DNA of 64,000 nt from an uncultured Gammaproteobacteria bacterium (GTDB lineage Bacteria > Pseudomonadota > Gammaproteobacteria > DRJJ01). The DNA lies in assembly GCA_947258795.1 (NCBI GenBank), contig CAMYJU010000007.1, positions 129,392-193,391 of the forward strand, in the 5' to 3' direction. Within the stretch, counting starts at the first letter, position 1. Each line of letters begins with the position of its first letter. The notes under the pieces are model-generated. The model was not told the DNA's origin and ran no database searches. It was given only the letters and a program-made list of their open reading frames with translations. The position numbers and the translations under genes were made by a program. Shown piece by piece: positions 37,983-57,448 of this stretch.

Positions 37983-38029
37983 GTATATTGTTGGCAGCTC
38001 GCTGACATCATCATAACAGGAATAATAGA

Positions 38030-39151: not shown

Positions 39152-39207
39152 GCGGTTCAGGTTATTCAAAACAACATGCAGCAGAGTAAAAACCGGGTAG
39201 GAAACAA

Positions 39208-40170: not shown

Positions 40171-40301
40171 TGAAGCCATTGAAACCATACCAGAAGGTCA
40201 TCGCCTATGCGTCACTGGCGTTCGTTCTGGCATGGACCGCATTTGGCATATTTACCATATGGGTAATACTGACTAACGTATAACGTACAGAAGGTAGAAC
40301 A

Positions 40302-41369
40302 ATGCACGGAATTGAAAATGACAGCATGATCTTCATTATCCTGACAGTGCTGCTGTTCATGTTCCTGGGTATTGCCATCCTGGTCGTGATCGACCACAAG
40401 GCCAAGATCCCGGATCATTTTCACAGTGATCCGTTCTCGATCAAGGGCCTGCGCCGCGATCATCCGGGTATTTCATTCCTGACTACCATGATACTGTTTG
40501 CGATCATTGCCAGCCTGATCTTTGAGCTGACCATTACATTGGGGGAGCACTTTGGGATGTTTGCTGAAAAGGAACAACCCAAGTTGCTACAGGAACTCAA
40601 GGAGCAGCGCTTCAGCGAAAAGAACAGGCATTTTCATAACGAGCCTGAGGAAGATCTGGTAAACCTGGGCAAGAAACCGGTCTGTTTCTCCTGTCATGGC
40701 GATTATCCGCATTCCAAGGAGCGTATGATCAGGACCCTGCTTAACATGCACACCCAGTTTGTCGGTTGTATGACCTGCCATAATGACCCACGCAAGTTTG
40801 AAGAGGAGTCACTCAGTTTCGCCTGGCTGAATTACTCGGGGATAGAAGTAACCGGCAAGCCCTATGGTACCGGTATTGACCCGAAAACCGGCTATCTGCA
40901 GGAAACAGACGATTATTATTCCAAGATTGTTGCCTATAACAAGACCGGTAACGGAAATGTCTTGCTGGAAATCACCGAGGATGACGAGAAGGCACAGGAA
41001 TACCTGGAGATCAAGGACAAGCTGTCTGACAAGGATCGCGAGGCCGTGAAAAAGCAGTTTCACAGGACCGTCAGTCCCAAGGGGCGGTTCTGCTCGCGTT
41101 GTCACACCGCCGAGAATGATAGCTATCTGCCATTTCGTAAACTGGGATTCTCGGAAGACCGTATCTCGGATGTGACCAATCTGAATATTATCGGTATCGT
41201 GCAGAAATACAGAAAATTCTATTTGCCCAACCTGTTTCAGCAGGACATCTCTCTGCCCAAGGTGGAGTCCCTGATTGGCTCTGAAAAGTCCGACAAGGTC
41301 AAGGAGGCGGTGGAAGATCCGAAGGCATGGTGGCGGCGTACGTTTGATTCACCCAGCGGGAACGAATAA
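40302..41369 (+). CDS. N-terminally membrane-anchored triheme c-type cytochrome. Module A; paralog of 47384-48277.
   Basis: TM anchor MIFIILTVLLFMFLGIAILVVI. CFSCH, CMTCH, CSRCH. Collinear with the 47384 protein. Confidence 0.75.
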   Translation: MHGIENDSMIFIILTVLLFMFLGIAILVVIDHKAKIPDHFHSDPFSIKGLRRDHPGISFLTTMILFAIIASLIFELTITLGEHFGMFAEKEQPKLLQELKEQRFSEKNRHFHNEPEEDLVNLGKKPVCFSCHGDYPHSKERMIRTLLNMHTQFVGCMTCHNDPRKFEEESLSFAWLNYSGIEVTGKPYGTGIDPKTGYLQETDDYYSKIVAYNKTGNGNVLLEITEDDEKAQEYLEIKDKLSDKDREAVKKQFHRTVSPKGRFCSRCHTAENDSYLPFRKLGFSEDRISDVTNLNIIGIVQKYRKFYLPNLFQQDISLPKVESLIGSEKSDKVKEAVEDPKAWWRRTFDSPSGNE

Positions 41370-42301
41370 TGTGCTTGCGACTGCGCACCCTGTGTTCAGC
41401 ATCGCTGATTGTGCTGTCCTGTCTTTATGTGCCGCTAGTCGAGGCAGCGGCACAGGCCAGCCGGACAATCACGTATCTGCATGAAATAACCCGTAGCCAG
41501 GTGGGTGAGCTGGAACTGCCTACAGATGTCGCGGTGCATGAATCACGTCTTTACATAGTCGATAGCGGTAATAATCGCGTGGTCGTGCTGGGCCGTAATG
41601 GTGAAACGCAGTTCGCTTTTGGCAGTAAGGGAACGGCGAACGGTGAATTCAATGGTCCTGTCGGCATAGGTGTCGGTCATGATGGCAGGATATACGTCGC
41701 AGACACCGGAAATCATCGTATCCAGATATTTTCGGCAACGGGTAAGTTTCAGACTGCTATTGCCACTACCACCGGCGAGGTAAGGGTGCGGCCTATCGAT
41801 GTCGCGGTCGAACCAAAATCCGGACATATTTTTATTACCGGCAATAATAATCACCGGGTTATGGTGTATAACCATAGCGGACGCCTGTTGCGCGAATGGG
41901 GCGGGAATGGGGCTGCAATCGGAAAGTTTCGTTACCCGGCCACCATTACTGTGATGCCCGATGCCAATATAGGTGTTATTGATGTATTTAATACACGTGC
42001 ACAACTGTTTCAGCCTGATGGTCGTTTTGTTGTCAAAATAGGTGAATGGGGGGTCCTGCCCGGTCAGCTCTTTCGTCCCAAAGGGATTGCGATAGACCGG
42101 AAAGGTCATATCTATATATCGGACAGCTACCTGAACGTGATACAGGTATTCAATGACAGTGGCAAATTTCTGCATGTACTCACACAGAAGGATACTGCCC
42201 ACACCATGATGACACCTACAGGGATAGCGGTCGCGGCAGACAATCGCCTGTATGTAGCAGAGATGCTCAGGCACCGGGTTGCCGTTTACCAGATGGATTG
42301 A
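41369..42301 (+). CDS. Secreted NHL-repeat beta-propeller protein
   Basis: Signal peptide. Repeated LYIVDSGNNRVVVL, IYVADTGNHRIQIF and IYISDSYLNVIQVF NHL blades. TAATG overlap with the upstream gene. Confidence 0.75.
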   Translation: MCLRLRTLCSASLIVLSCLYVPLVEAAAQASRTITYLHEITRSQVGELELPTDVAVHESRLYIVDSGNNRVVVLGRNGETQFAFGSKGTANGEFNGPVGIGVGHDGRIYVADTGNHRIQIFSATGKFQTAIATTTGEVRVRPIDVAVEPKSGHIFITGNNNHRVMVYNHSGRLLREWGGNGAAIGKFRYPATITVMPDANIGVIDVFNTRAQLFQPDGRFVVKIGEWGVLPGQLFRPKGIAIDRKGHIYISDSYLNVIQVFNDSGKFLHVLTQKDTAHTMMTPTGIAVAADNRLYVAEMLRHRVAVYQMD

Positions 42302-42307
42302 TGGTCC

Positions 42308-44665
42308 ATGTCAGCACGCAGTCAGACACATAACTGGAAAAAGGAACTGTTTATTGGCTTTATCCTTTTTGCAGGCTTATGCAGCTGGCTGTTTCCGGAG
42401 GACGCCTCGGCCTTACGGCGCAAGACCTCAACCAATCGTGAGTGTGCAATTTGCCATATCATGTGGCTGGAAGAGTTCAAGCGCCAGGATGTCAAACCTC
42501 TGGTCCCCTATGATCCGCTACCCAGGGAAAAAACCGGTAAGCAGGATGTGGCCAGTACCGAACAGATGTGTTTTTCATGTCATGACGGATTTGTACTGGA
42601 CTCGCGATTCAAGTGGAAAAAAAACCGCTATAACCACCCGGTCGGGGTAAAACCCTCGGATGATGTGACCATACCGACCGCCGAAGGCAAGACTGTCTTC
42701 CCTATGAATGAAGATGGCAAGATATATTGCGGTACCTGTCATTCCGCGCATGGTATTGACTGGAAGGAAAAGGATACGACACTGTTTCTGCGCATCGATA
42801 ACAGAAACTCCAACATGTGTACGGCATGTCACCTGAACCGCGTTACGGGTCCCAAGGAGGGCAATCACCCGGTCAACAAGAAACTGAAAAAATTGCCGGC
42901 CGCGCTGGTCAAGGCGGGTTCACTGTTCAGTAACAAGAATGAGGTTATCTGCCAGTCCTGTCACCTTGCGCACGGCTCAGAACAGAAGAAAATGCTGGCC
43001 AGGCCGAACCATAATTCCGATCTGTGTTCCAGTTGCCACGTTCAGCAGGCACGTGTCAGGCAAACCAAGCATAATCTGACCATCCTGGCGCCATCGGCCA
43101 AAAACGAGAGAGGGGATGTCGCCAGCGAGTCTGGTCCCTGTAGCGCCTGCCATGTCCCGCACAAGGCCAACGCACCGAAACTGTGGGCGCGTCCGGTCTC
43201 AGTCAATCAGGACAGGGGTAGTGCCTATTGCCTGAGCTGTCACAAGGAAAAGGGTGTCGCACGCAAGAAATCGATCAACAAACACAGTCACCCGGTCGAT
43301 GTGCCACTCAGAAGGGCCGGGATTATTGCCAAAAGAGACGGCTGGATCAGCCAGGTAAAAAACAGGGCTGCACCCAAAAAGATAGTCAAACTGCCGCTGT
43401 TTGATAAAGCGGGTGGAAGGGTCAGTGTGGGAGGTAATGTTACCTGTATGACCTGTCATGATCCCCATCTATGGTCGCCTGATCATGGCCAAACGCCTGC
43501 CCGCGATTTGCGCAAGCTGGAAGGTGATGGTTCGAACAGTTTCTTGCGCATTGCCAATAACAGTGACAGCACCTTGTGCAAGAATTGTCATCGGGAGCAG
43601 GCGGCAGTGGCCTGGTCCAAGCATAACCTGCAGATCAGTGCGCCGGATCAGAAGAACAAAGACGGTATGACGGTTTCAGAAAGTGGAGTCTGCAGTGCCT
43701 GCCATGTGCCACATAACGGCAAGGGCGAGAATATGTGGGCACGCAAGATTGGTAAAAAGGGCAAGGGTGTGATGACGCTTTGTATTGGATGCCATGCCAA
43801 GGATAGCATGGCCGAAAACAGAACGACCGGCAAGCATAGTCACCCGGTGCATGTCAGCCTGAAAAAGTCCGGATTGACGACTGACCTGCCGTTGTTTACG
43901 AAGCATGCCCGGCGTGACGACAAGTATGGCAGGGTGGACTGTGCAAGCTGTCATAATCCTCATCAGTGGGACCCTGGCAATGCGATCGCCAGTTCGGGCA
44001 GGGATCCGGATACGGATGGTGACGCCAGCAACAGTTTCCTGCGTATCAGGGCCAGCGGCAAGGCCAGGCTGTGTGTCAATTGTCATAAGGACCAGGCAGG
44101 ACTGATCGGTACTGATCATGACTTGTCAGTGACTGCGCGCAACGGCCTGAATGCCAGGGAACAAACTGTCAGGCAGTCCGGGCCTTGCGGGCAGTGTCAT
44201 GCTGTACATCATGCAGAATTGTCACGACGACTGTGGGTGCAAAAGGCTGGTAGCAGCGGGAATAGAACGGAGAAATTATGTACTGGCTGTCATAGCAGAC
44301 AGGGCGTCGGACGTAAAAAGGTGCCGGCGGAACTCGATCATCCGCCTCGCGTCTTGTCTGTCAACAAGGGTCGCTTGAGAGAGGGCGACAGGAACAGGCA
44401 GCAGGTGCCGGTATTTACCGAGCAAGGCAAGTCAGATGATGTGGGCATGATTTCCTGCCTGACCTGCCATGATCCGCATCAATGGAACGCAAGCAGCCAG
44501 AAGGCAGGTACCGGCAAGAATCTCGAAGGCGACGTGCGCAATAGTTTCCTCCGCCATACCGGTACCGAGTACTTTCTGTGTGCAGATTGTCATGGCGAGG
44601 ACTCATTGTATCGCTACAAGTATTTCCACTGGTCCAAATCCAGGTCGGATAAGAACAAGAAATGA
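42308..44665 (+). CDS. Very large periplasmic c-type cytochrome with 18 haem-binding motifs
   Basis: 785 aa. Signal/anchor helix. I counted 18 CxxCH motifs, many in the Cx2CHxxH doubled style (CGTCHSAH, CQSCHLAH, CSACHVPH x2, CMTCHDPH, CASCHNPH, CLTCHDPH). Confidence 0.85.
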   Translation: MSARSQTHNWKKELFIGFILFAGLCSWLFPEDASALRRKTSTNRECAICHIMWLEEFKRQDVKPLVPYDPLPREKTGKQDVASTEQMCFSCHDGFVLDSRFKWKKNRYNHPVGVKPSDDVTIPTAEGKTVFPMNEDGKIYCGTCHSAHGIDWKEKDTTLFLRIDNRNSNMCTACHLNRVTGPKEGNHPVNKKLKKLPAALVKAGSLFSNKNEVICQSCHLAHGSEQKKMLARPNHNSDLCSSCHVQQARVRQTKHNLTILAPSAKNERGDVASESGPCSACHVPHKANAPKLWARPVSVNQDRGSAYCLSCHKEKGVARKKSINKHSHPVDVPLRRAGIIAKRDGWISQVKNRAAPKKIVKLPLFDKAGGRVSVGGNVTCMTCHDPHLWSPDHGQTPARDLRKLEGDGSNSFLRIANNSDSTLCKNCHREQAAVAWSKHNLQISAPDQKNKDGMTVSESGVCSACHVPHNGKGENMWARKIGKKGKGVMTLCIGCHAKDSMAENRTTGKHSHPVHVSLKKSGLTTDLPLFTKHARRDDKYGRVDCASCHNPHQWDPGNAIASSGRDPDTDGDASNSFLRIRASGKARLCVNCHKDQAGLIGTDHDLSVTARNGLNAREQTVRQSGPCGQCHAVHHAELSRRLWVQKAGSSGNRTEKLCTGCHSRQGVGRKKVPAELDHPPRVLSVNKGRLREGDRNRQQVPVFTEQGKSDDVGMISCLTCHDPHQWNASSQKAGTGKNLEGDVRNSFLRHTGTEYFLCADCHGEDSLYRYKYFHWSKSRSDKNKK

Positions 44666-45463
44666 TGTCGCACATCCTGAATACACGGGTAGCAGCGGGC
44701 TGGTGGTATGGAGGACGTTAATCGGGTTGCCTGGGGTGTGGTTTTTATGCTCGGAGCTGCGGTATTTGCGTGGCTGGAGTGGCGTGATGATGACTGGTCG
44801 GCCATGGGCTGGTTTATTCTGACCAGTTTGTGGTCGGCTGTATGTGGTATCGGTTATACTGTCGCGCATTGGTTTCTGGAAAGAAAAGACCGGCCTAAGA
44901 CTGATTGAATCTGTACAGATGAAGATAGTTATTCAGTGTTGAAAAGGAAGCGGGTTGTTCTATATTTAAAACAGATTTAAATGGAATTAGTGTTCAGGGA
45001 ATACAATCAGTTTGCTGCCAGATAAGAGATCACAAGCAACTCCAGAGGAGAGTTGGGATGAGCAAACAAGACAATCAACTAAAAAAATCCTGTGTGTGGT
45101 GTATCAGTGCTGCGATAGCACTGATTCCGATAGCGATAATCGTCTGGTATTTGTTTTTTCGCTAACAGACCGGTGTAAACGTAAACGAACGTTACGGGTG
45201 TTTATGGATCGATCTGGCTTGATCTGAATCAAGAATATGATCGTATTGATCCTATATAATCTTTTTATAGTCTAGTTAAGTATATAATCAGATACTGAGT
45301 AGATTGTAACAATAATAAGGGATCATGGAATTGTTGGTTGCGTTGAAACAAGCCCCTGTTAACAGTGATGCCCATCCAGCGGCATCATGGGCTCGTTTTA
45401 CGTCCTGTTACCCTTTCAGCTTCCCGTACGATTATTCATCTTGCCTGCGAGGGCTCGTGTGCC

Positions 45464-46561
45464 ATGCATGAATACAGATTCCACCAGGTGCTCCTGATAT
45501 TAATCGTGTTATTTGTTGCTACTATACCGCCCGGGGAAGTCCAGGCAGGTGAGGAGCTCAATTGCCTGATCTGTCACAAGCACAGGGGGTTGAGCCGGAT
45601 TGATGAAAACGGCAAGTTCAGACTGTTTTATATCAATAACGAATTGTTCGAGTCCGGTCCGCACCGTCGTAACAATTGCCAGGACTGTCACACAGATATT
45701 GTTCGCATCCCGCATGACCCGGCAAAAAAAGTGGATTGCACCCAGCAATGCCATGTTGTCGAGCCTTCCGGCAAGGCAAGGTTTTCACACAAGCCAATAG
45801 CCGAAACGCTTGCAATGAGTGTACATGGCAAGCTTGATGCAGAGGGCAAGCCAAAAAAATACCAGGAGGACTATCCCGGTTGCAAAGACTGTCATGATCA
45901 ACCATTGTATCGTCCGCTATCGGTTTTCAAGGGGGAGCCCAGGTCCGGTATTTCCGAACGGAGTATCAGCCGCTGCAAAAGCTGTCACCGTACCGGTAAC
46001 TTTGCCGAGGATTTCTATGAGCATGTTACCTCACGTCTGCGCAAGGGCCGTTTCCCGCTGGAAACCATAGAGGTGTGTGCCAAGTGTCACCAGAACCCGG
46101 GCTTCCTGGAGCGACATGAGCTCGATGATGCGGTAACGACCTACGAGGAGACCTTCCACGGTAAACTGATCAAACTGGGTTCTGAGCGCACACCGGACTG
46201 CCTGGACTGTCATGTGGTCGAAGGTGAAAATACGCATCTGATCGAGGCGAAAACAGTGCCCACATCAGCCACCAACAAGGCCAATGTTGGCAATACCTGC
46301 AGGGCCTCTGATTGTCACAAGAAGGCCAGTGCACAATTGGCCAGTTTCCAGACTCATGTGACCTATGAACGGGAAAAATACCCGATGCAGTTCTACATGC
46401 TGATGTTCTTCAAGGCATTGATGGCGGTTATCCTGTATTTCTTCCTGACCATGATCTTCTTCGAGCTAATGCGGCGTCTGTTCCCGGCATTTGCATTCTT
46501 TAAAGAGAGCAAGGCTGATGACACGGATACCAGGCCGGCATTAAAAGATAGGGAACAATAG
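45464..46561 (+). CDS. Multiheme c-type cytochrome (about 8 haems) with a C-terminal TM anchor. Module B.
   Basis: Start MHEYRFHQVLLILIVLFVA. CLICH, CQDCH, CTQQCH (Cx3CH), CKDCH, CKSCH, CAKCH, CLDCH, CRASDCH (Cx4CH). C-terminal TM MLMFFKALMAVILYFFLTMIFF. Confidence 0.8.
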   Translation: MHEYRFHQVLLILIVLFVATIPPGEVQAGEELNCLICHKHRGLSRIDENGKFRLFYINNELFESGPHRRNNCQDCHTDIVRIPHDPAKKVDCTQQCHVVEPSGKARFSHKPIAETLAMSVHGKLDAEGKPKKYQEDYPGCKDCHDQPLYRPLSVFKGEPRSGISERSISRCKSCHRTGNFAEDFYEHVTSRLRKGRFPLETIEVCAKCHQNPGFLERHELDDAVTTYEETFHGKLIKLGSERTPDCLDCHVVEGENTHLIEAKTVPTSATNKANVGNTCRASDCHKKASAQLASFQTHVTYEREKYPMQFYMLMFFKALMAVILYFFLTMIFFELMRRLFPAFAFFKESKADDTDTRPALKDREQ

Positions 46562-46574
46562 CGAGGGTAGGAGC

Positions 46575-47390
46575 ATGTCAAAATATGATCCGATTGTATA
46601 TAAAGACGGCAAGCGCTATTTCTACCGATTTTCGGCCCATCAACGTATTCAGCACGTGGTCCTGTTCAGCTCTGTGCTGTTGCTGGCATTGACAGGCTTT
46701 CCATTGCGTCATGCTGATGAGGCCTGGGCAAAACCGCTGTATGCCGCCCTGGGTGGACCCGAGGTTGCACCAACGATACACAGGGTTGCAGGTTCGGTAC
46801 TGCTGGTACTGTTTGTCTACCATACGATTTACTGGATAGTGAAATTTATCAAGAATGACCTGGGCAAGTTGAAAAAGGAAAACCGCCTGACCCTGGGTAC
46901 TGGTATCAAGGCCTTTTTTACCCAGGAAATGGTGCCCAACAAGAAGGACTGGTACGACATTATCCATCTATGGAAATACCTGCTGTATTTCACCAATCGC
47001 CCGCCCCGGCATGAACGCATGTCATGGCGTGAAAAATTCGATTATTTTGCTCCGTACTGGGGTGTACCGATCCTGGGGCCTGCCGGGGCGGTCCTGTGGT
47101 GGCGGGATGAGGTCTCGCATATACTGCCGGGCTGGGTATTGAACGCGGCGTATATCATGCATACGGACGAGGCCTTGCTGGCGATTCTGTTCCTGTTCTT
47201 TGTGCACTGGTATAACGTGCACTATGCGCCGGAGAAATTCCCGGCAGCCAAGGTCTGGCTAACGGGTTATTTGTCAGAAGATGAAATGATCCATGAGCAC
47301 TATGCCCACTATGTACAGGTCATGATCGAGGCCGGGTTGGAGGAAGAGATCCAGCAGCAACACTTCGGTGGGGAGCATTACGAATGGTAA
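46575..47390 (+). CDS. Membrane b-type cytochrome subunit. Module B.
   Basis: HQRIQHVVLFSSVLLLALTGFP...IHRVAGSVLLVLFVYHTIYWI is collinear with the 39208 protein. Confidence 0.6.
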   Translation: MSKYDPIVYKDGKRYFYRFSAHQRIQHVVLFSSVLLLALTGFPLRHADEAWAKPLYAALGGPEVAPTIHRVAGSVLLVLFVYHTIYWIVKFIKNDLGKLKKENRLTLGTGIKAFFTQEMVPNKKDWYDIIHLWKYLLYFTNRPPRHERMSWREKFDYFAPYWGVPILGPAGAVLWWRDEVSHILPGWVLNAAYIMHTDEALLAILFLFFVHWYNVHYAPEKFPAAKVWLTGYLSEDEMIHEHYAHYVQVMIEAGLEEEIQQQHFGGEHYEW

Positions 47391-48277
47391 AGCTGCTTAA
47401 AAAGATTATTTTCAAGCTCTATGTGCTGTGCCTGATGGCCTTTACTGTCTGGTACGGTTATTTCATGTATCCGCTGATATTCGGTTTTGAGGGCAAGGAA
47501 AAGGCGGCTGAATCATTGTTGGAAATGGGTGCGGCCGGCACAGAAGAGGAAAAGATGTTTGTCCGGCTGATTGCCGAACAGACCAAGACCAAAAAGACTG
47601 ACCTGGGTTACAGGGTGATCGACCAACCCTACATAGAGGGTCGCTTCCATCATATCGGCTTTACCATACAGCAGGACAATGCCAGTATCTGTGTACGCTG
47701 TCATGGCAATGTGCCGCATGATGAATCCAAGGAGGTGCGTAGCTTCCTGAACATGCATGCCTTTTATCTGGCTTGCGAGACCTGCCATTCCAGACCGGAT
47801 GAAGGGGTAAAGGAGTGGGCATTCCGCTGGTATGACAAGGATACCGGCACGATTACCAATAATCCGCAGGCACTGAAAGATATCGAGAAACTGTATCATA
47901 CCGAGCAGGAGATCAGTCAGTATCCAATCTATGGCAATTACGGTGCTAAAGTGGCGCCGACCCTGAATGACTTTGGTGAGACCCGATTGCTGCATGGTGT
48001 AAAGGAAATGATCTTTGTTGACCGCTTTGTTACCGAGCAGGCCCGCTTGCAGCCCGAGCAGAAATCGCAGATGAAAAAGGTCATTCATCGCAAGGTTACC
48101 AAGGATCCGGTGCCATGCAAGGACTGTCATCAGGAAGTGGGCCCGTATCTTCCGTTTGCAGAGCTGGGCTACCCACCATCACGTGTGCGTGAGTTGACCA
48201 ATGTCGCGGTCGTGAATATGATTCAGCGGTACAAGGAGTTTTATATTCCGAGTTTGCTTAAACCCGGTGGTGGTTAG
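47384..48277 (+). CDS. N-terminally membrane-anchored triheme c-type cytochrome. Module B.
   Basis: CVRCH, CETCH, CKDCH. ATGGTAA overlap with the upstream gene. Confidence 0.75.
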   Translation: MVKLLKKIIFKLYVLCLMAFTVWYGYFMYPLIFGFEGKEKAAESLLEMGAAGTEEEKMFVRLIAEQTKTKKTDLGYRVIDQPYIEGRFHHIGFTIQQDNASICVRCHGNVPHDESKEVRSFLNMHAFYLACETCHSRPDEGVKEWAFRWYDKDTGTITNNPQALKDIEKLYHTEQEISQYPIYGNYGAKVAPTLNDFGETRLLHGVKEMIFVDRFVTEQARLQPEQKSQMKKVIHRKVTKDPVPCKDCHQEVGPYLPFAELGYPPSRVRELTNVAVVNMIQRYKEFYIPSLLKPGGG

Positions 48278-48355
48278 CAAGACTTGCAGCAGCCCTGTGT
48301 AAGGAGCTGAGGGTCCGTCCATTGTGGCCGGGTGGGTTTAATACAGGTGATGACA

Positions 48356-49090
48356 ATGAGCAGGATATGTATGCTTGTGTTGTTATTGTTGCCCCGTCTG
48401 CTCTGGGCAGAATGGCTGCTGGAACAGTCCGGTGATGGCCACTGGATCAGCAGCAGGGCGGCGGATTTTCCCCATCAACTGGTGGTTGCCAGTCATCAGA
48501 ATGATGTCCAGTTCCTGCTGATTCTGGCGACCGATCAGCGTACACCGGCCTCGCAGCTGCCAGCTGAAATCCGGGTAGATATGGATCCGTGGTTAAGTAC
48601 ACAACTGACTCCGCTGCAACAACGTCCGTATGGTATGGCGTTTCGTATCGAATTGCGCCCTGAAGCCAGACAAAAAATGGTTCAGCGCATGATCGAGGGA
48701 CTGCAAATGCAACTCAGTCTGGGTAGTGAAAAGCAGCCAAAACAAACCCTGACGTTTTCTATTATCGGTTTTACCGATGCCTATACCGACCTGCAGATTT
48801 CGAACGAGCTTGGCCGGCTGGACCCGGACTGGCTGATCGAACAGGGCAAGGACAGGGGACTGGCCTGTTACTATAGTGCCATCCTGACCGTACAGGCCCT
48901 GAACGGGCGCAGAAGGGGTCTTTCTGCTCGTCAGATGGTCGAACAACTACCGCGAACCGGCCTTGCCAGCGTGGACGACAGGCGTGCTGACATCGTTTCC
49001 GGGGCTTATCGGATGCCCCCGGCAAGGCTTCCCCGACACCTGACCACCTTGAAGTATAAACTGTTTAAAAGTTGTATGCGGGATCAGTAA
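48356..49090 (+). CDS. Secreted hypothetical protein (paralog B of 36004-36741)
   Basis: Signal peptide MSRICMLVLLLLPRLLWA. See the paralog alignment under 36004-36741. Confidence 0.6.
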   Translation: MSRICMLVLLLLPRLLWAEWLLEQSGDGHWISSRAADFPHQLVVASHQNDVQFLLILATDQRTPASQLPAEIRVDMDPWLSTQLTPLQQRPYGMAFRIELRPEARQKMVQRMIEGLQMQLSLGSEKQPKQTLTFSIIGFTDAYTDLQISNELGRLDPDWLIEQGKDRGLACYYSAILTVQALNGRRRGLSARQMVEQLPRTGLASVDDRRADIVSGAYRMPPARLPRHLTTLKYKLFKSCMRDQ

Positions 49091-49176
49091 ATAGCGACGC
49101 GATATCGATCATCATTGGCAAGTGGACGCGTGAGTTGGGAGATGTTTTTCCCATGGTAACGGGCTGCAGGATCGGC

Positions 49177-50910
49177 TTACATGCCACCGCCACCGCCACC
49201 GCCACCGCCACCGCCACCCATGCACATGCCGCCACCAGGCATACCACCACCACCTCCCCCATAGGTACAGGGGTCATGGTTTCTGCCATGGCAGGTCAGG
49301 TAGCAGCCACCGGCCTCGGTGCCGGGGCCATCACTGAAAAACTCCAGTCGGCCAGAGCCGCTCTGTGACACCACATCCGTATCAAAGTTGATCAATCGGG
49401 GCTGCTGGCTGCCATGAGGGTCATGACAGACATTACAGGGCGTACTTAGGGTGCCACCGCCCATATGCTGTCCAGCACCGGTAATATGGCGGTTGTGCAG
49501 CGGGAAAGTCTGGTTGCCAAGAATGCTGGTGCGATTGTGACACTTGTAACACAAGGCATACGCAGAGGCGCTCTCCGTGGTCGGGTCCTGGGTCAGGAAC
49601 TGGCGCTCCAGGATTTGCGGGTAGGCGGAGCCATGTGGTCCATTCGGGCCGCCAGTATTGTTGTTGTTATGGCAGTCCGTGCATTCGATGATACTGCCGG
49701 ACGGGAACGGCATCCCGGTCAGGCTGGGTGTATTGGTATCAGCCGCGGTACCGACCACCGGATGGTAGGACGGGTTGCTGGTACTGAACTCGTTGCGCAC
49801 ATTGGTTGTGTTGAACTGCCTGGTCGTCGGTGGTGCCGGTTTATTGGTGCTATCGGCATGACAGCGATAGCAAAGTTCGTATTGCAGATTGATCGTGGTG
49901 ACCTCATTGCCGGCGTTGTTCACACCTCGCACCAGTGACAGCGGCCCGGACGGGGTGCCGCTTGCGCTGGCCGCATGTGGATTATGACAGTCGACACATT
50001 CCACATGACGGTTGCTGACGATAGCCGCTTCGGTCGGATCATGTATACCGGTGGTATTCATGATTGGATGACGTGAGAACTTGTTGAACTCGTTCTGGAT
50101 GTTCTGTGACGCGACCGAGCCGTCATGGCAGGTGTAGCAGACATTTTCTTCCGTTGCGCTGCGTAACAGACGCTGTTTGCCATTGGCCGAGTGGGGTAGG
50201 TGGCAGCTCTGACAGGCGTGATTGGCAACACTGTCACCGTTCCAGTTCTGGCTGGAGGTGCTATGTGAGCTGGCCGACCAGCCTTGCTTGATATGGCAGG
50301 TCAGGCACAGGGCCCCGGCGGTATTGGACTTGACCAGGAACATACCGAACTTGTCTTCGTGGGCATTGTGACAACTGGTACATTGTAATTGACCGCTGTT
50401 ATCCAGCTTGACGTCAGGGCCCAGGCTGCCCGCCGGGACCAGCTCGGTCGGTTTGGCGCCCTGGCTGTTGGAGTAGTCGAATGACACTGGGTGATCGTCG
50501 GACAGGTCCTTGCTCAGGTTGGCCGGACCGGCCGGCATGGTCGGACCACCGCTAACATTGACATCGGTGACACGCGAATTCAGCTCACCGAGTGCGATGG
50601 TGCCGTCATGACAGCTCAGGCACAGGATCGACGCGCCGGTCGGGTTGCCCGGTGTGGTCGCGATACTGGAGCTGGTATAAGGTGTGTAGGTGCCGCCCGG
50701 ATCACGCCGGTTCCATAATGGGCCCGATGGGGACGAGTTATGCGGCGTATGGCAGAACAGGCATATCTCGGATTCGCTGGTGGCCTTGATACTACCGGGG
50801 CCGCTGACAGACAGGTTATGCTTGGTGTTGGCGATCTGACCCGTCACCGTGCCCCAGTAAAGGCCGCTCAGGACCAGTAACAGCAATGTTGTATTTTTGA
50901 TATTTCTCAT
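49177..50910 (-). CDS. Secreted c-type cytochrome with about 12 haems (doubled-CxxCH style) and a poly-Gly/Met C-terminal tail
   Basis: Signal peptide. CLFCHTPH, CLSCH, CTSCHNAH, CLTCH, CQSCHLPH, CYTCH, CVDCHNPH, CYRCH, CTDCH, CYKCH, CNVCHDPH, CYLTCH. Tail YGGGGGGMPGGGMCMGGGGGGGGGGGGM. Confidence 0.8.
   Translation of the reverse strand: MRNIKNTTLLLLVLSGLYWGTVTGQIANTKHNLSVSGPGSIKATSESEICLFCHTPHNSSPSGPLWNRRDPGGTYTPYTSSSIATTPGNPTGASILCLSCHDGTIALGELNSRVTDVNVSGGPTMPAGPANLSKDLSDDHPVSFDYSNSQGAKPTELVPAGSLGPDVKLDNSGQLQCTSCHNAHEDKFGMFLVKSNTAGALCLTCHIKQGWSASSHSTSSQNWNGDSVANHACQSCHLPHSANGKQRLLRSATEENVCYTCHDGSVASQNIQNEFNKFSRHPIMNTTGIHDPTEAAIVSNRHVECVDCHNPHAASASGTPSGPLSLVRGVNNAGNEVTTINLQYELCYRCHADSTNKPAPPTTRQFNTTNVRNEFSTSNPSYHPVVGTAADTNTPSLTGMPFPSGSIIECTDCHNNNNTGGPNGPHGSAYPQILERQFLTQDPTTESASAYALCYKCHNRTSILGNQTFPLHNRHITGAGQHMGGGTLSTPCNVCHDPHGSQQPRLINFDTDVVSQSGSGRLEFFSDGPGTEAGGCYLTCHGRNHDPCTYGGGGGGMPGGGMCMGGGGGGGGGGGGM
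49184..49219. repeat. Hexanucleotide tandem repeat (CCACCG)x5 plus CCACCC. It encodes the poly-Gly C-terminal tail of the cytochrome at 49177-50910.
   Basis: Direct reading: ccaccgccaccgccaccgccaccgccaccgccaccc. Confidence 0.9.
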
Positions 50911-51959
50911 GGCTGATCACCAATATACCGAAATACCTGAATTCGACTATTGTGCGAATCAGCGATATAGATCATATTATCATGGCTGATATAGATTCCG
51001 GTAGGTAACAGGAACTCACCGGCAGCCTCTCCGCGATGACCGACACTCAACAGGAATTCTCCTGATTTATCAAAAACCTGAAAGCTGTGAAACAAGGCGT
51101 CGACGACATAAATATGACCATTTTTATCTGTGGCGACACCCTTGGGCCGGGACATATCGCCCGTTCCATCCCCATGTCGCCCGAATTTTCTTATAAAACG
51201 TCCTTCCAGATCGAAGGTCTGTACCCGGAAGTTCAGTGCATCACTGACCAGTAACTGATCATTGCGGTCTAGCCAGATCATACTCGGGAAGTTAAATTCA
51301 CCATTCCCGATGCCGCGTCGACCGATGGTGTTGACCAGTGTCCCGTCGAGATCATATACCTTTATATGATGACGACCAGCATCGACCACATACAGGCGCC
51401 GGCTTTTCTGGTCTACGAATAAGTTTGTCGGCTGATCCGGGGTAATCTTGAGGTCCAGTTTCTCAGCGGTATCGCTTCCGGGTTTGATGACATAGATACG
51501 GGCCTGTGCAGAATCCGTGATGTAGACCTCTCCCTGGGCGCCCAGGGCCAGTCCGGTCGGAGAAGGGATGGCCTGTTCGTCCTGGGTCAGGATCACCTTA
51601 TGCCTGCCATTTTTGGTGTCAAAGCGGTGTACGGCCTTGCTGCCCGGATCGGCAACAAAAATTTTACCCTCTTCGGTAGACAACACGGCCATCGGGCGTA
51701 CCAGCTGCCAGTCGGCCGCGCCGGTAAAAAAGTCCATGATCTGTTCGAAGAAGCCCTTGCTGATACCGAGATCACGCGGTGAGGTGAATGACCTGACATA
51801 GGCTATGCGCGCTTTAGCGGGTGACTCTGGCCAGACCCTGTCGATTTTAGCTGTAGCCTGCTCTGCTTTCCTGTCTGTTGTCGTGGTACATCCGGGCAAA
51901 ACCGTTGTGAGAATCAGCAGGTATGCTGTCAAACCGGGTTTTACTTGCCATGACATCAT
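50907..51959 (-). CDS. NHL-repeat lipoprotein
   Basis: Start MMSWQVKPGLTAYLLILTTVLPGC (lipobox) 3 nt after the porin stop. NHL blades LYVVDAGRHHIKVY, LLVSDALNFRVQTF, IYVVDALFHSFQVF and IYIADSHNSRIQVF. Confidence 0.75.
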   Translation of the reverse strand: MMSWQVKPGLTAYLLILTTVLPGCTTTTDRKAEQATAKIDRVWPESPAKARIAYVRSFTSPRDLGISKGFFEQIMDFFTGAADWQLVRPMAVLSTEEGKIFVADPGSKAVHRFDTKNGRHKVILTQDEQAIPSPTGLALGAQGEVYITDSAQARIYVIKPGSDTAEKLDLKITPDQPTNLFVDQKSRRLYVVDAGRHHIKVYDLDGTLVNTIGRRGIGNGEFNFPSMIWLDRNDQLLVSDALNFRVQTFDLEGRFIRKFGRHGDGTGDMSRPKGVATDKNGHIYVVDALFHSFQVFDKSGEFLLSVGHRGEAAGEFLLPTGIYISHDNMIYIADSHNSRIQVFRYIGDQP

Positions 51960-51961
51960 TT

Positions 51962-54064
51962 TCAGAAATCCCGCCTGATGGTTGCCAGGAACTGGGTGCG
52001 CTCGGTTTCGGCAGGACCGGTTTGCTCCTTGCGCAGGATGGCCTGTGCATCCACACGTAACCGATAGAGCTGCCACTGTGCCGAGAGTCTGAACGTATCG
52101 CGTTTACGGAACTGGGTACCACCCACATCCTCTTCGGTATAGGCCTCTGCGCTGACGATCATACGGTTGATCGGGCGCGAACGCAGGATCACGCTGTAGC
52201 CGGTCAGATCGATGTCTTCATCGGTATTATCGTTGTCGACAGTCAACCTGTTGGCTGAAACCCTGAGCGTGGACGCGAGTGGTAACAGAAACTGGCTGTA
52301 GGCATCATAACGCTGGCTGCTAAAAGAGGAAATGTCCTCGTCCTGTTGGGTAATGTCGACACTGGCACCGACCTCGAGCCAGTCATTGACCGGATAATCG
52401 ACGCTGGCGCCATAGGACAGCCCACGTTGATTATTCAGCGGCGTTGTTGGGGCACCGGAAGTGACTTCCTGATCAGCCAGGCGGTATTGCACATAGAAGT
52501 TATAGTAGCGGAAATATTCCAGTGCGGCACGATAGGTCTGGTCCAGGTTGGTATAGCCCGCGCTGCCACCCGTTTTGTAAGAATAATTAACGCGTACGGT
52601 TTCGGGATCACCGATGTTACTGCCGCCCAGACGCTGGATTTCAGTGCGGGCGCCGACCACGATAACCCGGTAGTCCGTGTTTTCTACATAGGTCTGGGTC
52701 TGGGCAAGGTTCTCAACCTCAATAGTGGTAATATCGATAAAATCATTTGCCAACGCAACCGGTGTCAGGCCGGTCAGAGTGACACGTTCACCAATAACTC
52801 TGGCCAGGGTATCGTCCGCTTCTGATTCGCGGTCGATTTGCTGATAGCCTGCTACCGCTGTCAGGGTCAGTTTGCCATTCGGTACCGGGCGTTTGTGCTG
52901 CACCCGGCCATCAATACCATACAGACGGTTGGTCACCCCGGTGGTCTGATTGTCTTCTGCCGTGACACCGGCATTGAATTCGGTCTGGTCGCTGTAGAGA
53001 TAATCCAGGTTTGCGCTGGCGTTGTGATTGGTTGTGTCAACATCGTTGATGCTACTGTCCAGGAAACCATAACGGTACGATGAATGCAGTTTGTCAGAGT
53101 ACCTCCACAGCAGCGTGGGATAAAAATTGATTTCCTCACGCATCAGCACCCCTTCTTCCTGCGTATAGGTGGCGCGATCGAAATATCTGAACTGGTCTGC
53201 TTGACCAAAAACCCAGTCTGAATTGTAGGTCACCACATCGGTGGTGCGTGAGGTCGGCGTAATACCCCCCGGCACTAGCAGGCTGCCGGTACTGGAGTCC
53301 TCTTCGGTATGGTCATAACCGAGTGAATGCGAATAGTTTCCATCGTAGGATTTGCTTGCGCGTATACCGAAGCGGTCGATGGTTTCATCGACGACCTGGG
53401 TCAGGCTATCGCCTGTGCGCTCGTTATGCGAAGCAAACATGTTGACCTTTAGCGGGATCAGTGGCTCCAGTAAGGCGAAATCAAACCCGTAAAGTGTATT
53501 GGTTTGTTGCACACGCTCGGCCCTGCCCGGAAAAGAGGCCGGGTTGTCACGATTATAGTACAGCGCCAGCGGATAGGGTTTTTTCTCCAGAAAACTGGCG
53601 CGGGCATACAGACTGTAAAGACCGTCTTCTCCATCAGATTCGCCGCTGGCTGTTTCAAAGCTATCCTGTACAAAGGTAAACCCGGCACCCAGATCCAGTT
53701 TCAGCAAATTCGGATGGTAGACATAATTGTGTGTCAGGAACGAGAGTTCCTGTTCGGTAGTGGTTTGCTGCTGGCTAAGGGTTTCGACACCGGCGTTCGT
53801 ATCCATGCGTTCATCAAACAGGTAACGCAACTCAAGATAACTTTCGATACCGGTATTGCGAAATACATTGATATCTTCCGCGTAAGCACTGGTATAACTG
53901 ATGATAGTTGCAATCAGGCATGTGCCCAGACGCGCCAGGTGATGATTCAGGCCGAAAATCCTGCTTAATCGTGTCCCTGACGCATCAGTCAAGATGCGTG
54001 AAAAATGTCTCCCTGACCACGACGTAGAATATCCTTTCTTTTGAATGCTTATTGTTGTTTGCAT
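51962..54064 (-). CDS. Large outer-membrane beta-barrel protein (porin-like, a candidate sheath for a porin-cytochrome conduit). Start uncertain.
   Basis: About 700 aa, rich in alternating hydrophobic/polar beta-strand patterns and Y/N/D/T/G. Terminal ...ATIRRDF with a C-terminal Phe typical of OMPs. Candidate signal peptide ...RLGTCLIATIISYTSAYA-ED. The true start could be the ATG at 54064 or a downstream TTG. Confidence 0.6.
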   Translation of the reverse strand: MQTTISIQKKGYSTSWSGRHFSRILTDASGTRLSRIFGLNHHLARLGTCLIATIISYTSAYAEDINVFRNTGIESYLELRYLFDERMDTNAGVETLSQQQTTTEQELSFLTHNYVYHPNLLKLDLGAGFTFVQDSFETASGESDGEDGLYSLYARASFLEKKPYPLALYYNRDNPASFPGRAERVQQTNTLYGFDFALLEPLIPLKVNMFASHNERTGDSLTQVVDETIDRFGIRASKSYDGNYSHSLGYDHTEEDSSTGSLLVPGGITPTSRTTDVVTYNSDWVFGQADQFRYFDRATYTQEEGVLMREEINFYPTLLWRYSDKLHSSYRYGFLDSSINDVDTTNHNASANLDYLYSDQTEFNAGVTAEDNQTTGVTNRLYGIDGRVQHKRPVPNGKLTLTAVAGYQQIDRESEADDTLARVIGERVTLTGLTPVALANDFIDITTIEVENLAQTQTYVENTDYRVIVVGARTEIQRLGGSNIGDPETVRVNYSYKTGGSAGYTNLDQTYRAALEYFRYYNFYVQYRLADQEVTSGAPTTPLNNQRGLSYGASVDYPVNDWLEVGASVDITQQDEDISSFSSQRYDAYSQFLLPLASTLRVSANRLTVDNDNTDEDIDLTGYSVILRSRPINRMIVSAEAYTEEDVGGTQFRKRDTFRLSAQWQLYRLRVDAQAILRKEQTGPAETERTQFLATIRRDF

Positions 54065-54128
54065 CTGATCTGCTGGCTTGATCGCTACCCGTCCCGTAAG
54101 ACCGACGAGGGACAAGACGTGTCATTGG

Positions 54129-55271
54129 TTAAGGCTTGCCTGTTGCAATATCATCAACATATTCCATGTCTTTCATTTTGCCGAAGCCATAGACATTGAC
54201 CTTGTTGAGACCAAACTGGCTGGTAACCAGAATAAGGTATTCCAGCTTGAAATCAGGGTGTGCGAACTGCTGGAAGTGCTGGACATTGTCATAGTCGATT
54301 TCGACATCGGTAGGCAGGTTAATATCACCCTGTTTGGAACCAGGACGACCGAAATACAACAACAGTTTGCCTTCAGGACCCATGATTTGGACATTTTCGA
54401 ATGCAGCGTCCACTACATATAGTCGACCCTCCCGATCCAGCGCGATTCCCTTTGGGCGGGCAAATTTACCCAGACCGGTGCCGAGAGAGCCATAGGTACT
54501 CACATAACGGCCATCCTGGGTAAACTTCTGCACACGGAAGTTGCTGGTATCACTGACGTACAGGTGATTATCCGGTCCAATCTTGATATTGGTCGGATGA
54601 AATATTTCACCGTCCTTGCTGCCACCGCGGGAAACCTTGTATAGCAGCACACCGCTGTTCTTGTCGAGTACTTCTATTTCGTGATCCTGTATATCAACCA
54701 CGAACAACTTGTCACCGGAGATTGCGCTATCAACAGGCTTGAACTGCTTTTCGACACCATAGGCGCGTACAAACTTGTCATTGCTGTCAAACTTCAACAC
54801 CTTGTTACGCAGGGAGTCAGTGATGTATTTACTGCCGTCAGCATCAATGGTGATATTGATGGGCTTGGCCATACGTCCGCCACCTGTACCGGTGACCGTC
54901 TTGAAATTGTTATTGATCACATCCATCACGGCATAACCACCACCACGTGTGTCAACGACATGAATCTTGCCATCACGTATTTGTACGCCATAAGGTTTGA
55001 TCAATGGAATGGCATCCTTGTCCTTGTCTTTGCCCAACACAAAGGTAGCAAACTCGGAATCGGGCTTGCTAATGTCCCTGGATGATGAATAGGTCTTCAG
55101 AAACTGGATGCGGGGGGCATCCGGCAAGCTGGGGTAAAACAGGCGGCCGTCATCATCAACCTCCTTTTTCGGGGCGGTTTCACAACCAGTCATCGATAAT
55201 GCAACCACAATACAGGCCAACAAGAGGGTTCTTGTTGAGGTCATTATGTCAATAATTTTTTTCCGGATCAT
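54129..55271 (-). CDS. NHL-repeat lipoprotein
   Basis: Start MIRKKIIDIMTSTRTLLLACIVVALSMTGC (lipobox). NHL blades IHVVDTRGGGYAVM, YVSDTSNFRVQKF and LYVVDAAFENVQIM. Confidence 0.7.
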   Translation of the reverse strand: MIRKKIIDIMTSTRTLLLACIVVALSMTGCETAPKKEVDDDGRLFYPSLPDAPRIQFLKTYSSSRDISKPDSEFATFVLGKDKDKDAIPLIKPYGVQIRDGKIHVVDTRGGGYAVMDVINNNFKTVTGTGGGRMAKPINITIDADGSKYITDSLRNKVLKFDSNDKFVRAYGVEKQFKPVDSAISGDKLFVVDIQDHEIEVLDKNSGVLLYKVSRGGSKDGEIFHPTNIKIGPDNHLYVSDTSNFRVQKFTQDGRYVSTYGSLGTGLGKFARPKGIALDREGRLYVVDAAFENVQIMGPEGKLLLYFGRPGSKQGDINLPTDVEIDYDNVQHFQQFAHPDFKLEYLILVTSQFGLNKVNVYGFGKMKDMEYVDDIATGKP

Positions 55272-55428
55272 GCCAATATTCCACCAATGTGCCAGCCACA
55301 AATATATCATGACTCGGTTTGAATACAGAGAGTCGAACGTATAGCAGACAAACAAAAACCCCGTCACCCAGGTATCAGGTGACGGGGTGTTTTGTTACAA
55401 TATTTCCTGCCTTGCTAGTAAGACGTGC

Positions 55429-56136
55429 CTACTTGTTATGGCAGGTCAGGCACAATGCACTGGCGGCATCAGTGATACGCAGCAGCGGTGTGCCGGGAAT
55501 GGCATACTTGTTGTGTACGTCGTGGCATGAAGCACACTGTACCTTGTTTGCAAGCAGCATGACATCATCAATGGTGCCTGTTTTGGAATCGCCGCCCTGA
55601 CCAATAGTGACTGAGCCAACAGTCGGGTCAAACAGACTGGTGTCGGTTCCGGCCAGTGCAGCATCATAGGTGATAGAGATCGGATGGTCGTTACTCAGAT
55701 CACCGGTCGTGCCACCAGGTGTGCCTTCACCAATGTTTGCGGTACCGCTTATGTAGGTGCTACCGATTACACCACCGAAGCTGTCCAGTGCAACGGTACC
55801 GTCATGGCAGGACAGACACAGTTTGGACGAACCGTCTGGCTGTCCAACGGTGGCATCCAGTGACGGGCTGCTATACAGCGTATAGGTCGCTGCGGTCAGT
55901 GCATGGTTCCATAACGGAGCATCTGTAGTTGTGGTGTCCGCGTTATGCGGAGTGTGGCAAGCAATACAGATTTCACCGCCGGACCAGGTTGATGTTGAAA
56001 AATCATGATCAGTACCAACGATGGTACCTGCCCACGCCAGACTGCCTGTCAAGCTGAATACAACACTGCAGCAGCCAGCTAACAGTATCCGGCTCAAGCT
56101 TGTTCTTTTTTGTGTACCCATTTGTTTTACTCCCAC
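55429..56136 (-). CDS. Secreted tetraheme c-type cytochrome. First gene of the minus-strand operon; N-terminal paralog of the 12-haem cytochrome.
   Basis: Signal peptide. CIACHTPH, CLSCHDG, CASCHDVH, CLTCHNK. Collinear with residues 1-220 of the 49177 protein. Preceded by a roughly 380-nt AT-rich promoter region. Confidence 0.8.
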   Translation of the reverse strand: MGVKQMGTQKRTSLSRILLAGCCSVVFSLTGSLAWAGTIVGTDHDFSTSTWSGGEICIACHTPHNADTTTTDAPLWNHALTAATYTLYSSPSLDATVGQPDGSSKLCLSCHDGTVALDSFGGVIGSTYISGTANIGEGTPGGTTGDLSNDHPISITYDAALAGTDTSLFDPTVGSVTIGQGGDSKTGTIDDVMLLANKVQCASCHDVHNKYAIPGTPLLRITDAASALCLTCHNK

Positions 56137-57056: not shown

Positions 57057-57448
57057 ATGCATGTGGATATTGTCAGTACCGAGGGTTCAATCTTCTCGGG
57101 CAGGCCGTACAGTTGTTTGCCAATGCGGAAATGGGAGAACTGGGTATATGGCCACGCCATGCGCCCTTGATTTCCAGACTCAAACCGGGGCTTTTGCGAC
57201 TCGTAATCAATCAGGAAACCGAGCAGCATTTTTTTATTCCTTCCGGTGTTATCGAAGTGCAACCGCATATCGTCACGGTGTTGGCCGATACGGTCATGCG
57301 TAGCGCGGAGCTGGATGAGGCGGCAGCCAGGGCCGCACAGGTTGTTGAAAAGAAGCGTAAGGGTGTGGATTACACAGACGCCGAGTTACGACTAAGCCTG
57401 GCACTGTTGCGGGCCATGGAACATCTACGTAAATCCAGCAAGCGCTAA
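57057..57448 (+). pseudogene. atpC: Orphan F-type ATP synthase epsilon subunit, frameshifted about codon 17
   Basis: Frame 0 from the ATG at 57057 reads MHVDIVSTEGSIFSGR, the epsilon N-terminus. After a 1-nt loss in GCAGG-CCG the frame moves to that of the 57113-57448 ORF. That ORF reads AVQLFANAEMGELGIWPRHAPLISRLKPGLLRLV...GVIEVQPHIVTVLADT, collinear with E. coli AtpC ...[39 protein letters not shown]...GGILEVQPGNVTVLADT. There is no atpD upstream. Confidence 0.6.

Follow-up and report, generated by a model that had tools for sequence, protein, structure and literature searches.

Which known machinery does a gene cluster belong to when it combines secreted multihaem cytochromes, β-propeller lipoproteins and a large outer-membrane β-barrel of an unnamed family? 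The question is raised by a 64,000-nucleotide (nt) stretch of DNA, hereafter the window, from an uncultured Gammaproteobacteria bacterium (GenBank assembly GCA_947258795.1, contig CAMYJU010000007.1, positions 129,392 to 193,391). Five genes on its minus strand, between 49177 and 56136, encode in transcription order a tetrahaem cytochrome (cyt4), a lipoprotein with an NHL β-propeller (NHL1), the barrel, a second NHL lipoprotein (NHL2) and a larger multihaem cytochrome (cyt12). A preliminary description of the sequence had listed these open reading frames (ORFs) in the same order and at the same coordinates, which we confirmed, and had taken them for a conduit of the Mtr/Pcc type. Part of that reading stands, as the cluster is an outer-membrane electron-transfer module built of a barrel and secreted cytochromes. 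The closest known system, however, is the OmcE nanowire cluster and not Mtr/Pcc, because the four-haem module shared by cyt4 and cyt12 is an OmcE homologue. We put the probability at about 60% that the window holds a proteobacterial OmcE cytochrome-nanowire cluster, forming the outer-membrane part of an island for extracellular electron transfer.

OmcE-like modules in cyt4 and cyt12

The cyt4 gene (55429 to 56136, minus strand, with translation likely starting at the ATG at 56121) encodes a secreted OmcE-family cytochrome with four CxxCH motifs, a Sec type-I signal peptide and no lipobox. With phmmer, cyt4 matched two OmcE filament chains over its full length (residues 31-235), 9YUQ_N with an E value of 4.9e-25 and 7TFS_A with 1.4e-22. 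Our comparison set of Geobacter-type loci consisted of the G. sulfurreducens omcE locus (L063) and its relatives L066, L067 and L068; cyt4 matched the OmcE of L063 with E 3.6e-26 and OmcE across the set with E 1e-26 to 1e-28. PDB entry 7TFS is the G. sulfurreducens OmcE filament, and a search with its chain sequence returned a 98%-identical G. sulfurreducens protein, which supports the assignment. Entry 9YUQ is a 218-amino-acid (aa) cytochrome deposited as 16 chains, and we infer that it is the D. soudanensis OmcE bundle of 10.1101/2025.10.22.684050. These two are the solved filament structures among OmcE homologues, and both come from Desulfuromonadia.

The second protein, cyt12 (49177 to 50910, minus strand), is a secreted multihaem cytochrome with an OmcE-like head, seven to eight further haems and a poly-glycine tail. 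It has a type-I signal peptide and no lipobox, so that the secretion of both cytochromes assumed in the preliminary description is borne out. The head is a four-haem module at residues 24-208 (50287 to 50841, minus strand). A profile of the cyt12 family matched 7TFS_A with E 3.5e-46 over profile positions 7-208 and 9YUQ_N with E 5.5e-34, and cyt12 itself matched the OmcE protein taken from the G. sulfurreducens genome with E 2.4e-32. Between cyt4 and residues 24-208 of cyt12 the identity is 38% (E 7e-34), and the two are paralogues, as had been proposed. The earlier count of 12 haems holds in part: cyt12 has 11 CxxCH motifs and one C-terminal CxxxCH (CYLTCH), which is kept throughout its family. 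Twelve haems are thus plausible, a count that depends on this non-canonical motif. The C-terminal half resembles a different protein, the cytochrome MHC-A of the Geobacter-type loci (phmmer, E 9e-17), whose C terminus (...CVVGCHKPKSY) is similar to that of cyt12 (...CYLTCHG...TY, family consensus ...SY). The C-terminal tail of cyt12, at 49180-49266 (minus strand), is unusual: GGGGGGMPGGGMCMGGGGGGGGGGGGM. Poly-glycine tails ending in Met or Cys are present in some gammaproteobacterial relatives (L001, L005, L006, L007 and L010), and a tail of the cyt12 type was not seen in the β-proteobacterial relatives.

We aligned both solved OmcEs with nine members of the cyt4 family and nine heads of the undecahaem cytochromes that occupy the cyt12 position in related loci. 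All four CxxCH motifs and four further His (KH near the mature N terminus, TPH, DHP and CHxxH) are invariant. Conserved CxxCH motifs and further His are the criterion used for OmcE homologues (10.1101/2025.10.22.684050), and in OmcE and OmcS filaments each subunit supplies a His ligand to a haem of its neighbour (PMC9473688). Since all haem ligands are kept in cyt4 and in the head of cyt12, the distal His that ligates the neighbouring subunit's haem is also kept. We presume that cyt4 is a filament subunit. The same pattern bears on the alternative of a static Mtr/Pcc-type conduit, in which cyt12 or a periplasmic partner with 5-8 haems would sit in the barrel, cyt4 and cyt12 would be monomeric surface cytochromes tethered by the NHL proteins, and no filament would form. 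Conduits of this kind were put forward in the descriptions of Uet and Occ. We regard a static conduit as doubtful here, though a serious competitor, and one point against it is that cyt4 keeps every ligand His of a family whose two solved members are filaments.

Propeller lipoproteins

NHL1 (54129 to 55271, minus strand; Pfam NHL/DUF5128) is an outer-membrane lipoprotein with a six-bladed NHL β-propeller and the lipobox LSMTGC, the Cys of which is kept in 46 of 48 homologues. NHL2 (50907 to 51959, minus strand; Pfam NHL, E 1e-26) is a second propeller lipoprotein with the lipobox LPGC, its Cys kept in 36 of 42. The two are paralogues, with 29% identity over their full length (E 6e-41), and both are lipoproteins, as the preliminary description had it. 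Each has homologues in the Geobacter-type loci. With phmmer, NHL2 matched the NHL lipoproteins of these clusters with E 1e-50 to 1e-63 (1e-63 for the one in the G. sulfurreducens omcE cluster, L063) and NHL1 matched them with E 1e-36 to 1e-44 (1e-42 for that of L063). Both NHL proteins of L068 were matched by NHL1 and NHL2 with E 1e-36 to 1e-61. The statement that NHL lipoproteins are not a described component of such systems had to be dropped, as they are found in the minimal omcE clusters and NHL or β-propeller proteins were already described in Uet (10.1101/2022.05.06.490989), Occ (10.1101/695007) and the outer-membrane cytochrome clusters of D. ferrophilus (PMC5815863).

Signal peptides are present on all five proteins, and lipid anchors are confined to the propellers. 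A lipobox on both propellers and on neither cytochrome is what would be expected if the propellers were tethers replacing the lipid anchor of MtrC or OmcB, and in this respect the arrangement fits a static conduit. The placement of the propeller genes points to a further relation. Each of the three NHL genes of the island adjoins a gene with OmcE-like modules: cyt4 with NHL1, NHL2 with cyt12, and a third, NHL3, with an 18-haem cytochrome gene described below. These pairs support the idea that each propeller binds one OmcE-like module, which is probably the case, and suggest a dedicated partnership between the propellers and that module.

The outer-membrane barrel

The barrel protein (51962 to 54064, minus strand) is about 700 aa long and ends in Phe (RRDF). 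Its start codon is uncertain, and the mature protein begins at ...SAYA|EDI. An AlphaFold2 (AF2) model built with 35 homologues has a mean predicted local distance difference test score (pLDDT) of 88.7 and a predicted template modelling score of 0.76, and is all-β with about 28-30 long strands; the protein is thus a β-barrel, as first described, and neither soluble nor of another fold. Within Pfam no family, MtrB_PioB included, matched at E<=0.01, and no PDB sequence matched at E<=1, in keeping with the remark that the barrel does not look like MtrB. Compared with known structures, the model shows generic barrel fold similarity only, the longest structural alignment being with MtrB. A static conduit can therefore point to a size and fold like those of MtrB, while the position of the barrel outside the MtrB/PioB family counts against it.

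Conservation within the family is highest outside the membrane strands, in a β insert of about 80 residues (residues 423-501; 52562 to 52798, minus strand) with short strands off the barrel pattern and the consensus VIGExxTLxGLTPVALxxxFIxxxSIVVxNxxRTQTYxEGxDYR...TEIQRL, and this insert is a candidate plug or docking domain. Its phage tail-tube match was rejected as sub-threshold (24.6 bits against a cut-off of 60) and served only to draw attention to the domain. The family is very large: a full hidden Markov model (HMM) search of 1.84 billion cluster representatives gave 3,494 clusters at E<=1e-3 and 1,669 at E<=1e-30. An apparent rarity in a word-indexed search, which returned 37 relatives, was an artefact of sensitivity.

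Two alternatives turn on what the barrel does. In the first, the barrel and the NHL proteins are a machine for secretion and assembly only, cyt12 is an extracellular terminal oxidoreductase, free or loosely bound, cyt4 is a soluble shuttle and the electrons cross the membrane elsewhere. The conserved insert could be the gate of such a machine, and the osc cluster of OmcS is proposed (PMC13194489) to serve folding, secretion and morphology and not conduction. Roles of their own have been proposed for undecahaem cytochromes, namely Mn(III) reduction for OccP and cathode or Fe(II) oxidation for UetJ. We consider this alternative unlikely, for reasons of linkage and of island content given below. 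In the second, the genes form a periplasmic redox enzyme system that has nothing to do with extracellular electron transfer, with catalytic NHL propellers and a barrel that imports the substrate. The barrel has no plug, TonB-box family signature or transporter Pfam match, the matches to enzyme families were all below curated cut-offs or generic propeller matches, and the constant partners are OmcE-like cytochromes; such a system is very improbable. In the omcE cluster the barrel has been suggested as "secretion or anchor" (10.1101/2025.10.22.684050). Within the nanowire reading that we prefer, the barrel may likewise be a channel for secretion or anchoring no less than a cytochrome sheath.

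Gene junctions and a hairpin behind cyt4

The five genes had been described as translationally coupled, and for three of them the junctions suggest it. The TGA of the barrel gene and the ATG of NHL2 are separated by 2 nt, not the 3 nt first given, and the stop of NHL2 overlaps, in an ATGA, with the start of cyt12, as reported, so that barrel, NHL2 and cyt12 are likely coupled. The idea of one operon needs correction at the other end. Between cyt4 and NHL1 there is a terminator-like hairpin followed by a U-run (55348 to 55388, minus strand), with a 13-bp stem that includes eight GC pairs. The predicted RNA fold has a ΔG of -28.3 kcal/mol and a z score of -5.15, and none of 200 shuffled sequences was equally stable. 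A hairpin of this strength 3' of cyt4 implies separate or attenuated transcription of cyt4 relative to the downstream genes; it may be an attenuator, and cyt4 may be transcribed in excess of the other four genes. A surplus subunit would be needless in a 1:1 complex, which is a further point against a static conduit.

Conservation of the five-gene order

The full barrel alignment holds no conserved stretch, and species-representative genomes were scanned with a motif taken from the closer barrel sequences, which gave 55 loci. In about 45 of the 55, ORF calling and phmmer recovered the order tetrahaem-NHL1-barrel-NHL2-undecahaem; in all, this five-gene order is present in about 50 species genomes and in many metagenome contigs. 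The arrangement is conserved far beyond chance. Its carriers include Acidiferrobacteraceae, Thiotrichaceae, Rhodocyclales, Rhodoferax, Thiobacillus and Sulfuritalea, the lucinid-clam symbiont Ca. Thiodiazotropha, the isolate Aromatoleum toluvorans Td21 (L039) and one Rokubacteria metagenome-assembled genome. They span metal-reducing and sulfur- or iron-oxidising lineages and include denitrifying Proteobacteria. A rearranged cluster is found in Bacteroidota and Ignavibacteria, for example in the isolate Lutimonas vermicola IMCC1616 (L058), with NHL2-undecahaem first and then tetrahaem-NHL1-(5-9-haem)-barrel-(10-14-haem).

We also scanned metagenomes with the cyt12 alignment, which gave at least 579 relatives, and counted gene content on the best 80 loci. 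A barrel of the same family lies directly upstream of NHL2 and the undecahaem gene in 53 of the 80, that is, in essentially every locus with enough flank, and a Geobacter-type barrel is present in none (0/80). The cyt12-type gene always stands directly after NHL2. This strict linkage of barrel, NHL2 and undecahaem, together with the coupled translation, points to a stable complex and argues against a barrel that serves secretion only. In most metagenomic and Bacteroidota relatives a gene for a compact 5-9-haem cytochrome lies directly upstream of the barrel gene, like mtrA beside mtrB, which favours a static conduit; the window-type cluster has no small cytochrome before the barrel, which does not.

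Several loci depart from the basic set. Extra OmcE-like genes, 5- and 6-haem variants among them, or a duplicated NHL2-undecahaem pair were seen in L016, L019, L022, L044, L048, L085, L073, L103 and L138, and the 5- and 6-haem variants resemble the "5-haem OmcE-like" proteins of 10.1101/2025.10.22.684050. Six metagenome loci (L115, L121, L125, L126, L128 and L148) have the same-family barrel, the NHL2-undecahaem pair and two to three small trihaem cytochromes before the barrel. These trihaem-rich loci look transitional towards clusters of the Uet/Occ type. In L136 and L141, cytochromes like those of the Geobacter cluster occur with a close OmcE homologue and an NHL-undecahaem pair; the large haem-free ORF of these two loci gave no match to either barrel profile and hints at a third barrel type.

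The wider electron-transfer island

The five genes had been described as an operon. They do not stand alone: they are the outer-membrane end of an island of about 19 kb (36945-56136) in which cytochrome modules of the periplasm and the inner membrane are encoded as well. Downstream of the five genes, related Gammaproteobacteria carry a series that begins with an 8-haem and a 7-haem cytochrome, continues with a cytochrome b and a 3-haem membrane protein, and ends with a third NHL protein and a cytochrome of about 780 aa (about 1,025 aa in L062). In the window the corresponding genes, at 36945-44665, are on the plus strand and convergent with the five genes, as they are in the closest relatives, L064 and L069.

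The first of them encodes w345 (36945 to 37982, plus strand), a periplasmic cytochrome with eight haems (eight CxxCH motifs; Pfam). A counterpart lies directly downstream of the undecahaem gene in most of the related gammaproteobacterial loci (L001, L004-L010, L043, L059 and L061). It is followed by inner-membrane module 1 (38030 to 41369, plus strand), comprising a 7-haem cytochrome, a cytochrome b (Ni_hydr_CYTB) and a 3-haem membrane-anchored protein, and this module adjoins the five genes in many loci. The start of NHL3 (41369 to 42301, plus strand; Pfam NHL, E 3e-31) overlaps the stop of the gene before it, and the gene of the 18-haem cytochrome (42308 to 44665, plus strand) begins 6 nt past the NHL3 stop. 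This last protein has 785 aa and 18 CxxCH motifs, arranged as four tandem OmcE-like modules and a dihaem; an OmcE-like HMM matched the full sequence with E 5.7e-39 and gave four periodic, colinear sets of matches. It is in effect a covalently fused stretch of "nanowire."

Inner-membrane module 2 (45365 to 48277, plus strand) is paralogous to module 1. Its trio, in which a 6-haem cytochrome is joined by a cytochrome b and a membrane protein with three haems, recurs in L035, L040, L073 and L075. Modules 1 and 2 are probably two points of entry to, or exit from, the quinone pool. Module 2 and a 252-aa ORF (48332-49090) are inserted between the convergent operons and are absent from the closest relative L064. 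The remaining genes of the window are housekeeping genes. An isolated ORF similar to the ATP-synthase epsilon subunit adjoins the cluster (57113-57448, plus strand), with no other ATP synthase genes nearby; L064 has a PF02823 gene at this position.

No second porin-cytochrome module was found within the 64-kb window. If the barrel and the propellers served only secretion and assembly, the electrons would need another route, and the island holds a complete periplasmic and inner-membrane cytochrome chain that needs an outer-membrane exit.

A model of the cluster and points against it

Taken as a nanowire cluster, the five genes suggest the following sequence of events. After export by Sec and attachment of the haems, the barrel and the two propeller lipoproteins would form a platform that exports the cytochromes and holds them at the cell surface. 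The cyt4 protein, made in excess owing to the terminator behind its gene, would polymerise outside the cell, through cross-ligation between His and haem, into an insulated haem wire. cyt12 would act as its socket, its OmcE-like head docking on the wire like one more subunit and its further seven to eight haems running through or along the barrel to the periplasmic w345 and 18-haem proteins. These periplasmic cytochromes would in turn connect to the two modules of cytochrome b and multihaem proteins at the quinone pool. A fuller version of the model, which we put forward tentatively and would not rate as probable, makes cyt12 the missing nanowire socket. Its head would co-polymerise with cyt4 as the first or last unit, its other haems would cross the barrel of about 28-30 strands and each propeller would clamp one OmcE-like module, the complex being at once a trans-outer-membrane conduit and the base of a filament; the 18-haem protein would be a ready-made periplasmic stretch of wire.

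Several observations weigh against the nanowire reading. The window barrel has no detectable similarity to the barrel of the Geobacter omcE clusters: hhalign gave probabilities of 1.2% and 2.0%, and reciprocal HMM searches between the window and Geobacter-type barrels gave 0-4 bits. An equivalent role of the two barrels is for this reason an analogy. The commonest layout in the metagenomes has an extra small 5-haem cytochrome gene 5' of the barrel, which the window lacks; this gene resembles an MtrA-like insert of the classical kind, which speaks for the barrel as a conduit. The identity of cyt4 to the solved OmcEs is no more than 30-45%, and its polymerisation into filaments is something we infer from its sequence. 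Hairpins comparable to that behind cyt4 were found only in L007, L010, L017 and L049 and are not universal. The socket role of cyt12 is purely conjectural, and the AF2 monomer model of cyt12, made without haems, is poor (pLDDT 52.7). Finally, what cytochrome filaments do physiologically is in dispute (PMC11077965, PMC13194489).

How nanowires are secreted, initiated and terminated has been listed among the open questions of the field, and none of the omcE operons examined in that work had an OmcE-like protein with extra haems (10.1101/2025.10.22.684050). The present cluster supplies such a protein, and its main value lies in the specific proteins it offers as possible anchors or initiators of cytochrome filaments, where start, end and wiring to the cell are a stated gap. 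It also reveals a second barrel family, again very large, that goes with the same OmcE and propeller components, and places the cluster family in sulfur- and iron-cycling and denitrifying Proteobacteria, beyond the classical metal reducers. If the carriers do make haem wires, electron exchange over long distances would be much more widespread than one would expect from the Geobacter model.

Comparison with known systems

The omcE cluster of Desulfuromonadia, known from G. sulfurreducens and D. soudanensis WTL, has the same parts list as the window cluster. Its minimal form consists of OmcE, two β-propeller lipoproteins, a large β-barrel and two multihaem cytochromes (MHC), and OmcE homologues with a porin gene nearby occur in five phyla, Pseudomonadota among them (Petersen et al. 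2025, 10.1101/2025.10.22.684050). In G. sulfurreducens (L063, the GSU0615-0618 region) we found the order resB-ccsB-MHC370-MHC330-NHL361-OmcE-barrel752, followed by glycosyltransferase genes, and L068 has the full published set as MHC-MHC-NHL-OmcE-NHL-barrel. OmcE and the NHL proteins of this cluster are true homologues of cyt4 and of NHL1 and NHL2, and the relation of MHC-A to cyt12 covers the C-terminal half of the latter, terminal CxxxCH...SY motif included. The gene order, however, is permuted, and the barrel, of about 750 aa against about 700 aa, is not detectably similar. The glycosyltransferase genes and the adjacent resB and ccsB are found in the Geobacter cluster and not in the window cluster. 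Conversely, the N-terminal OmcE-like module of cyt12 is absent from the cytochromes of the Geobacter cluster, and the window cluster, unlike the omcE cluster, is linked to cytochrome-b modules and to the 18-haem protein of tandem OmcE modules. By its gene and domain content, the proteobacterial variant is distinct, with another barrel family, an OmcE-headed undecahaem cytochrome and no glycosylation genes, and it is very widespread.

MtrCAB, MtoAB and PioAB differ more. The window has no match to their MtrB_PioB family and no decahaem cytochrome of the DmsE/MtrA family; against TIGR03508, which represents the latter, cyt12 scored 59 bits and cyt4 19 bits, with a cut-off of 192. The surface cytochromes of the window are not lipoproteins, unlike MtrC, and the cluster has propeller lipoproteins and an OmcE-family subunit instead. 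In the Geobacter Pcc systems (OmaB-OmbB-OmcB and Ext) the outer cytochrome is again a lipoprotein, whereas cyt4 and cyt12 have no lipobox, and searches of the window with the Pcc and Ext models gave only a sub-threshold ExtKL match, to a neighbouring protein. The osc operon of G. sulfurreducens (Shen et al. 2025, per PMC13194489) is alike in concept, in joining a filament cytochrome to dedicated factors for folding, channel-like secretion and β-propeller-like control of morphology. Its OmcS belongs to a different hexahaem family and has no sequence similarity to OmcE. Porin-cytochrome clusters reported in 2026 from Methylobacter and from peat were considered and are other systems.

The Occ cluster of Ca. 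Dechloromonas occultata (Rhodocyclales; Szeinbaum et al. 2020) shares an extracellular undecahaem cytochrome (OccP), six-bladed NHL proteins and tetrahaem and trihaem cytochromes, and was expressed during Mn(III) reduction (10.1101/695007). It is unlike the window cluster in having 19 genes with many trihaem cytochromes and an OccP annotated at 922 aa, and the text consulted makes no mention of a barrel. The Uet cluster (Eddie et al. 2022, Hoover et al. 2023) is known from Ca. Tenderia electrophaga, Gallionella and Leptothrix and likewise occurs in Gammaproteobacteria. It combines a tetrahaem and an undecahaem cytochrome with a 28-strand barrel and two NHL proteins (10.1101/2022.05.06.490989; PMC10734462). 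When the parts lists are compared, cyt4 corresponds to UetA, the barrel to UetC with its approximately 28 strands, the propellers to UetH and UetI, and cyt12 to UetJ, and in both clusters the tetrahaem gene is first and the undecahaem gene last with an NHL gene before it. The peptidyl-prolyl isomerase UetB, the c7 trihaem cytochromes UetD, UetE and UetG and the cupredoxin UetF are found in Uet only, with none among the window genes at 35407-56136. The Uet barrel gene lies seven to nine genes from UetJ, whereas only NHL2 stands between barrel and cyt12 in the window, and Tenderia, Leptothrix and Gallionella were absent from our barrel-motif scan of species-representative genomes. From these parts lists, Uet and Occ are probably elaborations of the core represented by the window cluster. 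If the carriers do make haem wires, Uet, proposed for cathode or Fe(II) oxidation, and Occ, proposed for Mn(III) reduction, would belong to the same class of machinery as the nanowire cluster proposed here.

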